Assembly (NCBI GenBank): GCA_041641295.1
Contig: JBEPYO010000001.1
Coordinates: 768,001 to 832,000, forward strand
DNA length: 64,000 bases
DNA from: Nitrososphaerota archaeon
GTDB taxonomy: Archaea; Thermoproteota; Nitrososphaeria_A; Caldarchaeales; Calditenuaceae
Direction of reading: 5' to 3'
The notes beneath the pieces were generated by a model. It did no database searches. It saw only the letters and a list, made by a program, of their open reading frames with translations, and was not told where the DNA came from. Position numbers and translations under genes: made by a program. Positions within the stretch are counted from its first letter, which is position 1, and the number at the start of each line of letters is the position of its first letter. Below are positions 2,063 through 42,946 of this stretch, piece by piece.

Positions 2063-3151
2063 ATGACAGAAGTAAAGCTCGAGAAGGTGTGTAAATACTT
2101 TGGGGAGACAAAGGCTGTAGACAATGTCGACCTACAGGTTAATGATGGTGAATTTATGGTATTATTGGGCCCGTCAGGCTGTGGCAAGACCACAACCTTA
2201 AGGCTTATTGCTGGTCTTGAAAAGCCGACAAGCGGTCTAATACTTTTTGATGGCGAGGTTGTAAATGAGCTGGAGCCTAAAGATAGACGAGTTGCGATGG
2301 TTTTCCAAGACTATGCGCTATACCCCCATATGAAAGTGTTTGACAACATGGCGCTGAACCTCCAAGTACGCGGTGTACCACGTGACGAGATAAGGCGGAA
2401 GGTTTTGGAAACTGCTGAGCTTTTAGGAATTAAGCACCTCTTGGACAGGAAGCCTGGTCAGCTCAGCGGAGGAGAGCAACAGCGCGTTGCCCTAGGACGT
2501 GCTATCGTTAGAGAGCCGTCTGTTTTCTTGATGGATGAGCCGCTTTCCAACCTTGACGCGGCTCTTAGGGCTAGGATGAGGGGTGAACTGAAGAAACTCC
2601 AAGAGCGATTAAAGACAACAACAATCTATGTTACACATGACCAAATAGAGGCGATGGTAATGGCTAACAGGATAGCAGTAATGAAGAGTGGCAGGATACA
2701 GCAGATAGGCTCGCCTCAAGAGATATACAATAGGCCTACTAACAGGTTTGTAGCAGAGTTCGTAGGAAGTCCGAAAATGAACATATTCGACGCAACAGTG
2801 ATAAGTGATGAAAATACAAGACTAACCACCGGTGAATTCGATATCGATATATCCCCGTTACTAGCTCGAAAAGTGGCGCAGAGCAGTTCAGGCCCTGAGG
2901 TATTGGTTGGCGTTAGGCCTGAAGACGTCGCGGTCTCCACAACCTACCAAGAGGGGTTTATAGAGGCAATGATCTATCTTGTCGAAGATATTGGAAACCT
3001 CTCATTTGTCACGCTTCAAGCCGGTGATGTGTTTATTGTGGCGCAGGCACCGCCATCAATTGGGCTAAAAGTAGGTGATAAGGCATATTTTAAGCTAATA
3101 GCTGAGAAGTTGCATATATTTGATAAAAAGACAGAGGAATTGATAATTTAA
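2063..3151 (+). CDS. Sugar ABC transporter ATP-binding subunit (MalK/MsmX family)
   Basis: Walker A GPSGCGKT, LSGGEQQRVALGRA, DEPLSNLD, VTHDQIEAM, C-terminal TOBE region. Confidence 0.95.
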   Translation: MTEVKLEKVCKYFGETKAVDNVDLQVNDGEFMVLLGPSGCGKTTTLRLIAGLEKPTSGLILFDGEVVNELEPKDRRVAMVFQDYALYPHMKVFDNMALNLQVRGVPRDEIRRKVLETAELLGIKHLLDRKPGQLSGGEQQRVALGRAIVREPSVFLMDEPLSNLDAALRARMRGELKKLQERLKTTTIYVTHDQIEAMVMANRIAVMKSGRIQQIGSPQEIYNRPTNRFVAEFVGSPKMNIFDATVISDENTRLTTGEFDIDISPLLARKVAQSSSGPEVLVGVRPEDVAVSTTYQEGFIEAMIYLVEDIGNLSFVTLQAGDVFIVAQAPPSIGLKVGDKAYFKLIAEKLHIFDKKTEELII

Positions 3152-39017: not shown

Positions 39018-39110
39018 TGCTCCGGCCGGGATTTGAACCCGGGTCTCCGGCTCTCTCCGCATCTCTGGCCCGAAAGGCCGGCATACTTGTCCGGGCTATA
39101 CTACCGGAGC
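39018..39110 (-). tRNA. tRNA-Glu(TTC) with 18-nt intron (39053-39070) at position 37/38
   Basis: Minus strand GCTCCGG...CCGGC-CT-TTC-G[GGCCAGAGATGCGGAGAG]A-GCCGG...GGTTCAAATCC...CCGGAGCA. Confidence 0.93.
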
Positions 39111-40819: not shown

Positions 40820-41026
40820 AGCTAATACACCAAGCTCTAATGTCTAGCCCCAAGATTTAAATCTAAACCCCCATTCAAGAATCTAATAACTGGGCGTGTC
40901 CATCTAACCGTTAATAGAAAGTAAATACTCGGATTACTACTGCATATATACAGACATGCCCGATCTGTAGAAGGGAGGTTTAAAGTCCAGAGGAATCAGA
41001 AGATAGGAGGCGGTTCCGCAATAATT

Positions 41027-41038
41027 AAGAAAGAAAAA
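41027..41038 (-). terminator. Oligo-U terminator directly after the structured RNA
   Basis: Minus strand TTTTTCTTTCTT 8 nt past the base of the hairpin. Confidence 0.55.
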
Positions 41039-41046
41039 GGTAAGCT

Positions 41047-41212
41047 GGCTGAGGGCCACACCGGTCAGGACAGCATCTAAGAACCCCCATGAGAGGCCGG
41101 CATGTTAAAGTCTTTGTCATGTATGGTAGCTCTCCACCATACATGTTAAAACATGTATCATACCGGCCTAAGGGTTTTTCCCTGCTGTCCTAGGCCAGCA
41201 TGATCCTCAGCC
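41047..41212 (-). ncRNA. Candidate structured guide-like RNA (~166 nt) overlapping the 3' end of the IS110/Tas-like gene
   Basis: Nested helices GGCUGAGG/CCUCAGCC, UCAUGCUGG/CCGGUGUGG, UAGGACAGCA/UGCUGUCCUG, AGGCCGGUAUG/CAUGCCGGCCU, a 13x13 loop and apical CAUGUAUGGU/ACCAUACAUG. Most imperfect pairs are G-U on the minus strand. Confidence 0.7.
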
Positions 41213-42087
41213 TCTAGCGGGGTTCTCGTCAGCACCGTTTCTCTGATTCTCTTAATAACCTGAACTTGGTCCTTTGCCTTGATCGTGCTCGTGCCCTTTA
41301 AGGCTATGGTCAGTCTTTGCAGGGCCTGCCGCGGTAGCCTATAGTATATTTTCAGCCTCCCCTTAGCTGGTTTGAAGAGCCCTACATAGTTGTTTATTTT
41401 TTCGATGCCGCGGTTGAAGTCGACGTAGGTCAGAAGTTCTGCTAGAGCCTCTCTCGCTAGCAGATGGTTCTCACCAGCGATCTCTAGAGCCTCAACAACT
41501 TTATTATAGGTTGGTATTCGTCTACCAGCCTCCTCGACTATCCTGGCAGCCATAGCCGCCATTTGCCTCTCCGTGCACCTTATGGCCTCCCTCAGGATTT
41601 CCCTCTCGACACCCTTGTTCAAAGCCCTCATCCCATTCAACAAGCTTTGATGGTTTCTCAGCAGTACTTGGAATGCGCTGATTAGCCTCCGCATCTCGAG
41701 GAAGTCCTCATCAATCTCCCTGAACCATTTCTTCTCTACCCTCATTAAGGCTCTGAGGTCATTCCTAGCAGTCTTAGATAGTCTAAGCTCCTCTCTTTTC
41801 TGCCTCAACATCGTAAGCCTTCTAAGGTGGTAGACTCGTACGCCCCTTCTCAGCACCTCAACGAACTCGTCTGTGAGTTCTATTGGTATGACATCAACGT
41901 AGAGCTCATCACCGGCCTCCGCTGGAATATCGGCGATCTTAGAAGCCTTGCCGAAGGCCTCACCGTCAACAATGTATACATGATAGTTCTCCTCAGTCTT
42001 ATTCTTACGCCTTTTATTGGCCAGTCTGTGAACATCGACGTAGAACCTTCTAACAGCTCTTCCGGGAATCTGCATTATTTCCATCAT
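41158..42087 (-). CDS. Divergent IS110-family / Tas-like protein (RuvC-like, coiled coil, Nop/Tnp-like)
   Basis: FYVDVH, LYVD and SKTARNDLRAL align with the IS110 DEDD motifs (GxD, E, KTDxxDA). Helical coiled-coil centre; ALAELL...NYVGL resembles the IS110 C-terminal AYAGL, but no SG motif follows. Confidence 0.6.
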   Translation of the reverse strand: MMEIMQIPGRAVRRFYVDVHRLANKRRKNKTEENYHVYIVDGEAFGKASKIADIPAEAGDELYVDVIPIELTDEFVEVLRRGVRVYHLRRLTMLRQKREELRLSKTARNDLRALMRVEKKWFREIDEDFLEMRRLISAFQVLLRNHQSLLNGMRALNKGVEREILREAIRCTERQMAAMAARIVEEAGRRIPTYNKVVEALEIAGENHLLAREALAELLTYVDFNRGIEKINNYVGLFKPAKGRLKIYYRLPRQALQRLTIALKGTSTIKAKDQVQVIKRIRETVLTRTPLEAEDHAGLGQQGKTLRPV

Positions 42088-42213
42088 CTATTCATCTCCC
42101 CCGCTATCAACATAGTAACACACCATGTTGTCAGGAAGTAGTCGAGAAAAGTCTGGTCAAGGGTTAGCTGTATGCCAGCCCAAGCCATACTAGCAGCAGA
42201 GTGGGAATTGAGG

Positions 42214-42227
42214 TTATATAGTCTTTT
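42214..42227 (-). promoter_or_regulatory. BRE/TATA promoter for the IS110/Tas-like gene
   Basis: Minus strand AAAAGACTATATAA about 130 nt upstream of the start codon. Confidence 0.5.
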
Positions 42228-42946
42228 AGACCCCTCAGTGAAAGTAACAACTCCTGTTTCTAGCTTTCGCAATCTTTCTAGACTTCACCATGGCCTTGAG
42301 CAGTTAGTAGTATAAGGGTGATGTCTTAGGTAGAGAGGATACTATCGTTGATAAGGAGTCCAGTATTACAGATGAGAGTGATGTTAAGGGTGTGAGGACG
42401 ATTAAGAGGGGCTTGAGGGTGTTTAAGAGGCCCCAGAGCTGAGATATGAGATAACAGCCGAGTAACAGCCAGCATTAAGACGCTCAAACAGTTGTTTAAT
42501 CGGGACTGTGATAAGGTTGAGGTGATTATATCCCTAACCGTCTATCGATAAGGCCGGGCATGATGACGGGTTCATAAAAGCATCCATACAGGATACAACG
42601 AATACGGGGACATACTGTATATGCTTATAAAGACTTTATCAGACAAGGTGACTGCAAGGGTAGGCTGTGTAAGCGTCATAGAGCCCAGAAGCCGTATGAG
42701 TGGCTCATAGAAACAGCGGCTTATTCAGAGATAGGGGAGATGGGTCATATTTTGGCGCCCAGACTACATGATAACAGCTGGTAAGAGCCTTAAATAAAAC
42801 AAGTTTTTCTTCTGTATTTTGTCCTTATCTCCCAGTTATTCTCGGCCAGCACCTCCGAGAAGAATTCTCCGCATAACACCTCACCTCTGTCTGTTAGGAC
42901 GCCCATAGGAAATTAAAGTTTAAACATTTGCTATTTTCCAGCAACT

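Follow-up and report, generated by a model that had tools for sequence, protein, structure and literature searches.

A candidate self-targeting, RNA-guided mobile element, intermediate between TIGR-Tas and IS110, in a Nitrososphaerota archaeon

Elements of the IS110 family have a catalytic serine, and a core sequence flanks the integrated element; in IS1111-type elements, the RNA is placed 3′ of the gene. In the TnpB and IscB systems (IS200/IS605), the omega-RNA overlaps the 3′ end of the nuclease open reading frame (ORF), a single flank-derived guide is used together with a target-adjacent motif (TAM), and the transposase (TnpA) is separate. Homing endonuclease genes lie inside their own recognition site, which is present solely in element-free alleles. 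Here, we describe an element that consists of a gene for a 309-amino-acid (aa) protein, an overlapping hairpin RNA, and the DNA inserted with them. It lies in a stretch of 64,000 nucleotides (nt) from a hot-spring Nitrososphaerota archaeon of the Calditenuaceae (order Caldarchaeales; assembly GCA_041641295.1, contig JBEPYO010000001.1, positions 768,001 to 832,000), and this whole stretch is referred to below as the window. In our reading, the locus is an RNA-guided mobile or homing element that targets its own site and is intermediate between TIGR-Tas and IS110.

In TIGR-Tas systems, TasR uses two 9-nt spacers that pair with opposite strands of an 18-bp site, with a gap of 0 to 2 bp tolerated (Faure et al. 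2025, PMC12045711). The A and B spacers can be swapped, no adjacent motif is required, the cuts leave 8-nt 3′ overhangs, and stem-loop guide units have been described for TIGR (PMC12045711). In the same source, natural targets are said to be hard to identify and the roles of TIGR-Tas are called open, with "genetic mobility" among the possibilities. A 2026 preprint reports that stem-loop guides can sit inside the 3′ end of the tas gene and that catalytically inactive TasR and TasA are RNA-guided repressors. IS110 elements carry a two-loop bridge RNA, and a 2026 noncoding-RNA atlas preprint selected bridge recombinases by Pfam architecture, which the window family lacks. No Tas-like or IS110-like element with a guide matching its own insertion site was found in the passages of the literature covered, those of the atlas preprint included; the TIGR-Tas supplements (table S1) and the TIGRFinder/TIGRSafari catalogue could list the family.

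The inserted unit and its two guide segments

The element interrupts an intergenic site that is continuous in related genomes. In the genome comparison, both flanks of the inserted unit (Table 1) abut in one genome of the same genus (G034; query positions 5-630 and 2621-3001, overlapping by one base), and the insert was also missing from G035, G029, G032, and G030. One boundary base (T, plus strand) can be assigned to either side. The unit reaches ∼100 nt past the hairpin on one side and ∼830 nt past the start codon on the other. A preliminary description of this DNA had placed the module at 41027-42227; that span is real, but it is only part of the inserted unit. Two results go beyond that description: the module lies in a mobile insert, and the interrupted site is matched, half by half, by two segments of the hairpin loop.

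The internal loop of the hairpin is laid out as box, 9 nt, box, apical stem-loop, box, 9 nt, box, and the two 9-nt segments are designated spacers A and B. In the gene orientation, the empty site of G034 is ACATGTTT followed by AAGTCTTT, which is identical at 16/16 positions to the first 8 nt of spacer A joined to the reverse complement of the first 8 nt of spacer B. The spacer A segment forms the left half of the G034 site, and the spacer B segment forms the right half in G034, G035, and G029. The complete empty site of G035 differs from the spacer-specified 16 nt at one base.

The same correspondence was found in five copies of the element in a complete related genome (G012), which are 86 to 96% identical across ∼1.6 kb. 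When aligned, their hairpins are conserved save for two short variable blocks, each lying between identical motifs and separated from the other by the apical stem-loop. All 10 spacers of the five copies match their own flanks exactly across 9 nt, the left flank always in sense and the right flank always as the reverse complement; the chance expectation was estimated at ∼0.05 matches per 9-mer in the DNA searched. Uninterrupted sites for three of three copies tested were present in G011 and G013, with the insert exactly between the half-sites and with 1 or 2 central bases found on both sides of the junctions. The rule that emerges is that two 9-nt guides specify a 16-bp site with a 2-nt central overlap, the site being read one segment per strand with the spacer 3′ ends meeting at the center. 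Since the element lies at the exact center of its target, no intact target is left in the host, and an uninterrupted site remains only in element-free genomes. As with homing endonuclease genes, the gene thus interrupts its own recognition site. Unlike homing endonucleases, recognition here would be by RNA rather than by protein, and specificity could therefore change without a change in the protein.

For a family-wide test, spacer positions were taken from covariance-model columns, and 67 distinct hairpins were compared with 670 controls that used the spacers of other copies; one locus fetched twice and three rows with gapped spacer columns were left out. An exact 8+8 pair in the correct arrangement was found for 10/67 hairpins with their own spacers and for 1/670 controls, and at least one correctly oriented half-site was found for 38/67 and 83/670, respectively. 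Correctly oriented half-site matches numbered 53 with self spacers and 88 in the controls, and wrongly oriented matches numbered 8 and 82. Parsing of the loops by minimum-free-energy folds was too noisy and was replaced by this column test. A cruder window test gave 19/44 self pairs versus 35/220 nonself pairs, and a whole-loop k-mer search against 9 kb was not significant alone, with about one 10-mer expected by chance. For a possible fifth empty site, that of locus L083, the left flank alone was conserved in relatives.

The guide arrangement is that of TIGR-TasR in several respects: two 9-nt spacers lie between short conserved motifs, they would pair with opposite strands of one short site, and A and B are interchangeable. 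As in TIGR-TasR, serine recombinase chemistry is lacking. Only if the spacers have their 5′ ends outermost in the site would 3′ overhangs result, and this is the layout seen here. Unlike TIGR-TasR, the site spans 16 bp and the guides overlap by 2 nt, in place of 18 bp and a gap of 0 to 2 bp, the hairpin is long, the guide target is the insertion site of the element itself, and the elements are dispersed, multicopy, and chromosomal in Caldarchaeales. The motifs flanking the spacers also differ from the CCA and UG boxes published for TIGR. There is one dual-guide loop per gene and not a TIGR-type tandem array, in line with the single loop and single unit of the preliminary description; no second guide unit was found at the loci inspected.

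Table 1. Features of the element and its flanks in the window
Feature	Positions	Strand	Remarks
Whole inserted unit	40930..42919	-	1990 bp; orthologous intergenic site uninterrupted in five same-genus genomes
Protein, 309 aa	41158..42087	-	ATG start; predicted RuvC-like N-domain, coiled coil, Nop/IS110-Tnp-like C-domain
Candidate guide RNA, nested hairpin	41047..41212	-	166 nt; overlaps last ∼18 codons and stop codon
Spacer A	41148..41156	-	ACAUGUUUU; 5′ flank motif UAUGAU, containing the TGA stop of the ORF
Apical stem-loop between spacers	41116..41147	-	with flanking conserved motifs AACA ... AUGAC
Spacer B	41107..41115	-	AAAGACUUU; AUGAC on 5′ side, AACA on 3′ side
T-rich tract	41027..41040	-	likely archaeal terminator; after helix
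B recognition element (BRE)/TATA-like string, putative	42214..42227	-	AAAAGAC TATATAA; ∼127 nt upstream of ATG; read from sequence
Flank half-site	40923..40929	+	AAATACT; AAAGACT(T) in relatives = spacer B first 8 nt; one mismatch here
Flank half-site	42922..42929	+	AAACATTT; AAACATGT in G034 = reverse complement of spacer A first 8 nt; one mismatch here
Copy-specific DNA within insert	42307..42919	-	613 nt; upstream of paralogue-shared part
Copy-specific segment, other side of insert	40930-41018		outside paralogue homology

In the homology comparison, the window segment in common with paralogues was 41419-42306 only, and the putative BRE/TATA string falls within the part where homology to a paralogue persists. 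In the copy-specific 5′ region, 10 nt at 42629-42638 on the plus strand (opposite to the gene) repeat spacer B and one further base; this repeat may be due to chance, with ∼0.07 such matches expected for a fixed 9-mer. Among the contigs examined, no joints and no empty allele were found. The target site in the window lies ∼27 nt upstream of the start of an endonuclease IV gene and ∼110 nt upstream of the start of a thermosome gene. The four mapped targets (in the window and at L039, L040, and L041) are all intergenic with an AT-rich center (TTTAA, TTAAAT, or TTTAT-like). Given these AT-rich centers and the position upstream of gene starts in the window, promoter sequence resembling a TATA box may be where the elements insert. 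A tRNA gene (39018-39110, minus strand; Rfam tRNA, 52.6 bits across all 71 model positions) is located between the thermosome gene and a UbiA-like membrane ORF; at 93 nt, it probably contains an intron.

The hairpin RNA and the protein

The preliminary description had proposed a hairpin of ∼166 nt that uses the last ∼18 codons as its 5′ arm and is followed by an oligo-U tract, and both proposals were borne out. The RNA fold of positions 41020-41240 (minus strand) has an energy of −100.4 kcal/mol, compared with a mean of −63.1 (standard deviation, 4.7) for dinucleotide shuffles (z = −7.87), and 0/200 shuffles folded as well. The 5′ arm spans the last ∼17 to 18 codons, with the TGA stop (41158-41160) inside the arm. 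A pyrimidine-rich tail with a T run is kept in homologous loci (alignment columns after CCAGCC). As in the tas case of the 2026 preprint, the stem-loop guide lies within the 3′ end of the gene. Rfam showed nothing above chance on the hairpin (STnc390, 21.7 bits versus a gathering score of 50).

Covariation was analyzed in two sets of hairpins. For 19 hairpins, sequences were aligned with MAFFT and the structure was projected from single-sequence folds: 89.3% of cells were paired, compared with 83.3% in shuffles (0/500 reached 89.3%) and at most 46.6% in slid controls, and both-sided changes occurred in 19/53 pairs. For 69 distinct model-aligned hairpins, 91.9% of cells were paired versus 77.6% in shuffles, and 45/53 pairs had compensatory changes; this covariation leans towards the structure because the alignment was fitted to the covariance model. 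In the apical helix (helix 6), 10/10 pairs had compensatory changes. The model match in the window extends across 41019-41225 (G000:C1:809019-809225).

Projection of single-sequence folds was adopted because consensus folds on plain alignments were poor. RNAalifold, given 40 hairpins in a plain MAFFT alignment, returned only 3 pairs, and alifold on the 19 sequences picked an alternative local pairing of two 5′-arm segments; both were set aside. Segments of the CAUACCGGCC type and the GGCCGGUAUG type in the 5′ arm are mutually complementary (for example, at ∼41163-41200 of the window, minus strand), and an alternative hairpin conformation formed by pairing of these segments is possible.

The long imperfect inverted repeat near one end of the insert might instead act at the DNA level, with a cruciform or a single-strand hairpin serving as a recombination signal in the manner of the IS200/IS605 subterminal hairpins and with no guide RNA involved. 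Consistent with such a role, the antisense fold is nearly as stable as the sense fold family-wide (means of −80.9 and −84.2 kcal/mol; mean difference, −3.2). We regard this explanation as very improbable. In the 19-hairpin alignment, G-U cells outnumber A.C cells by 104 to 29, an excess that the preliminary description had noted for the window copy, and two G-U pairs are conserved across the 69-hairpin alignment (in 50/65 and 51/69 sequences). In the window copy, the central 176 nt fold to −95.3 kcal/mol in sense (10 G-U among 64 pairs) and to −80.1 kcal/mol in antisense (4 G-U among 59). Moreover, the relatives of the protein are all RNA guided, and the distance from the end of the hairpin to the right half-site is not fixed (7 to 782 nt).

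The 309-aa minus-strand ORF was present as described, and neither Pfam nor NCBIfam gave a match to its protein, even at E ≤ 10. The structure predicted by AlphaFold2 with a 54-member alignment (predicted local distance difference test [pLDDT] score, 92.0; predicted template modeling [pTM] score, 0.88) combines a beta-rich N-domain with a pair of long helices and a helical C-domain. The best Foldseek match of this model was TIGR-TasR (9mty; E = 6e-6; TM score, 0.57 to 0.59), ISCro4 and IS621 were also among the top matches (TM score, 0.56 to 0.61), and TasH was weaker. With sequence alone, the family profile matched the same proteins in the PDB: TasR (E = 1.3e-8), IS621 (8.8e-5), TasH (9.7e-4), and ISCro4 (2.3e-3). 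Predicted structure and fold searches thus agree with the RuvC-like motifs, coiled coil, and IS110-type C-terminal region that had been read from the sequence, and the suggested comparison with IS621 and TasR gave matches to both by either route. PF01548 (the IS110 N-domain) was seen weakly in 6/54 family members (best E = 0.0098), and both PF01548 and PF02371 were below threshold in the window protein and in the family members. The predicted architecture of RuvC, coiled coil, and Nop domain is that of TIGR-TasR (TaTasR, PDB 9MTY), at only ∼11 to 12% sequence identity.

Several residues are conserved in the 54-member alignment: D18 in 52/52 nongap positions, D65 and R98 in 52/54 each, and K105 and D110 in 54/54. 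No Ser is conserved in the C-terminal domain, as the absence of a catalytic serine in the window protein had suggested, and Tyr248 (39/54) is the best-conserved residue of that region. By range offsets in the structural match, D18 would be the equivalent of TasR residue 11. D11A is an inactivating catalytic mutation of TasR (Faure et al. 2025, PMC12045711).

A protein that binds DNA under RNA guidance without catalysis, as a repressor or as a marker or blocker of the empty site, would leave movement of the element to host recombination or to activity in trans. The repression by inactive TasR and TasA reported in the 2026 preprint offers a precedent, and one DEDD position is not acidic in the window copy. 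This explanation is improbable in our view: the host genome no longer has the full 16-bp site, and a regulator would therefore have no target there; conservation of D18, D65, and D110 extends to 52 to 54 of 54 members; and D18 appears to align with the residue that D11A inactivates in TasR.

With the archaeal box C/D small ribonucleoprotein (sRNP), which contains Nop5, the element shares a Nop-like C-domain, a coiled coil, and an RNA whose two guides lie between conserved boxes. A box C/D-like modification particle, in which a Nop5-like protein and a guide would act on rRNA or tRNA, would account for the dual-guide layout, which resembles that of C/D sRNAs. Unlike the box C/D sRNP, the element has a conserved acidic RuvC-like center and DNA rather than RNA targets, the spacers matching DNA half-sites on opposite strands that flank the insert. 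The gene is mobile, patchy, and multicopy rather than a conserved housekeeping gene, and TasR and IS110 match far better over the full length, so that we give an RNA-modification particle almost no credence. According to Vaysset et al., Nop5 is not descended from any extant archaeal IS110 clade in their data.

Family distribution and comparison with insertion sequences

The genome that contains the window (1.56 Mb, five contigs) carries five paralogues with 37 to 55% identity, each with a long hairpin that begins at or just before the stop codon. A word-indexed search returned 123 relatives from "Candidatus Caldarchaeum," Nitrososphaerota metagenome-assembled genomes (MAGs), and one Thermofilaceae MAG; all of those with names were "hypothetical" except a fragment carrying a DUF86-type label. 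When 1.84 billion cluster representatives were searched exhaustively with a profile, only 189 matched at E ≤ 0.001. Within the order, 33/76 genomes had the gene; the number of matches in a genome ranged from 0 to 31 or more, and many of these matches are fragments or lie at contig ends. The 3′ hairpin was present at nearly all homologous loci inspected, so that recurrence of the hairpin in homologs, on which the preliminary description had made its RNA depend along with covariation, was observed. The hairpin covariance model matched 26/76 genomes and tracked the gene (six matches for five genes in this genome). Some genomes (G033, G007, G034, and G029) have 20 to 31 or more copies of the gene and a similar number of hairpins, and sister genomes have none to three. 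This sharp difference in copy number between same-genus sister genomes indicates lineage-specific bursts of the element.

Hairpins were also found without the gene or with a C-terminal remnant alone. Solo hairpins with no detectable gene adjoining them scored 132 to 183 bits (L110 [G012:C1:468801-468998], L112, L116 [G029], L118 [G014], L119, and L122 [G033]), and seven more loci retain merely a C-terminal remnant. These may be nonautonomous derivatives mobilized in trans. Copies within one genome are mosaic, and several have the same spacer (for example, B) with a different partner (A). Because such copies share one spacer without the other, their sequences point to frequent exchange between hairpins. 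A full copy (L016, G029:C13) and a truncated 988-bp insert (L113, G029:C24) have identical spacer pairs and share the hairpin only (201 nt, 93.5% identity). In addition, elements of the G012 subgroup have a 134-aa antisense ORF in their 5′ part (L041:2408-2812, minus strand; also L038, L039, L040, and L018), which is 75 to 91% conserved among copies and is not in the genome of the window. This ORF is PCNA-like by eye, yet it has no Pfam match.

Several features set the element apart from classical insertion sequences. Among the four mapped inserts, the termini are unrelated, the implied insert lengths in the family are 988 to 2455 bp, and the orientation of the element relative to the guides is not fixed (A|B in six pairs, B|A in four). 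The idea that flanking DNA had been transduced was rejected: in five genomes, no further copy was found of the 232-nt right segment that is specific to L041.

The resemblance to IS110 and IS1111 elements (IS621, 8WT6/8WT9; ISCro4, 9T56) lies in mobility, in an element-encoded noncoding RNA that sets the target through two guide strands meeting at a central core, and in a short core on both sides of some inserts. On this basis, the protein could be an RNA-guided recombinase of the IS110 kind whose bridge RNA has a single loop. That loop would bind the target, strands would be exchanged at the 1- to 2-nt core with an excised, possibly circular copy, and the donor would be recognized otherwise than by a second loop. 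The best support for a recombinase is the clean central junction with its 1- to 2-nt core, since a TasR-type 8-nt stagger does not predict such a junction. At the center of the target, the two guides have an overlap of 2 nt. In L039 and L040, these bases (AA) are present to either side of the insert, and in L041 and the window they are so in part, just as the core flanks the integrated element in IS110; the position of the RNA is also that of IS1111-type elements, 3′ of the gene. Presence that differs between close genomes and high copy numbers are likewise compatible with a recombinase.

Nevertheless, we judge a recombinase to be unlikely, if well within the range of serious alternatives. In contrast to IS110, the family has no conserved Ser nucleophile, and it has a single loop instead of a target-binding and a donor-binding loop, with no internal match to the insert termini found that would represent a second (donor) guide. 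Neither the termini nor the insert lengths are conserved, the orientation relative to A and B varies (6 against 4), and the Pfam IS110 models stay below their thresholds. The preliminary description had characterized the locus as a one-protein, one-RNA guide module related to both IS110 and Tas and fitting neither, and the fold, RNA, and serine tests support that characterization.

Proposed mechanism and significance

When all of the readings are taken together, RNA-guided targeting of the empty site is likely. As to how the targeting leads to insertion, we favor nuclease-driven homing or capture, with a confidence that falls somewhat short of even; it is favored because there is no serine, there is a single loop, TasR is the best match, the orientation is unfixed, and the ends are undefined. 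The hairpin RNA would be made and bound by the protein, which by analogy with TasR is probably a coiled-coil dimer. The resulting ribonucleoprotein would recognize the uninterrupted site, the RuvC-like center (D18, D65, and D110) would break the DNA, and the element would be copied in by recombination from the filled allele (homing). A rarer route may be capture at a new, partly matching site, which would explain the nonconserved termini, the variable insert length, and insertion in either orientation. The overlap of the guide with the 3′ end of the gene and the proposed logic, in which an element-free site is cut so that the element is restored or copied, are both familiar from TnpB and IscB. 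The RNA is unrelated to theirs, and the protein architecture is different.

Several observations weigh against RNA-guided, nuclease-driven homing as set out above. The flanks of the window copy have drifted from its spacers by one base per half, and the copy may for this reason be old or inactive. No exact pair was present for 57/67 hairpins within the DNA searched. The strand preference of the hairpin is modest family-wide, with the sense fold the stabler one in 29/44 hairpins, and position 107, the equivalent of the third DEDD aspartate, is Asp in 29/54 members and Ala in the window protein. The junctions keep both 8-nt halves intact with 1 or 2 shared bases, and end-joining after a TasR-like cut with an 8-nt 3′ overhang would duplicate or delete more than this; the short, shared central core looks more like that of IS110. 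Finally, the spacers common to L016 and L113 fit the flanks of L113 and not those of L016, and homing as proposed does not account for the origin of new spacers. One possibility is that an element is first captured off target, at AT-rich sites that match in part, and that its spacers coevolve afterwards; another is that new spacer pairs arise by exchange between hairpins.

More tentatively, the family may represent a previously undescribed autonomous class in which a protein of ∼300 aa and one RNA of ∼170 nt direct their own insertion into a freely variable 16-bp site. Specificity would be rewritten from copy to copy, solo hairpins would possibly be mobilized in trans, and the class would be a living intermediate between TIGR-Tas and IS110. 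If this reading is true, it would provide the first natural target and a biological role for Tas-like systems. In the window family, the target can be read from the genome, since it is the insertion site of the element itself, whereas the natural targets and roles of TIGR-Tas are called open in the report on that system (PMC12045711). The combination of a TasR-like, single dual-spacer guide without a serine and IS110-like mobility and core overlap bears on the link among TIGR-Tas, IS110, and box C/D ribonucleoproteins. A thermophilic protein of this size that works with one RNA on a 16-bp site with no evident adjacent motif would also be a candidate for a compact programmable tool for DNA targeting or insertion. 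For Caldarchaeales, in which some genomes carry dozens of copies, ∼190 "hypothetical" protein clusters could be annotated as one mobile-element family.

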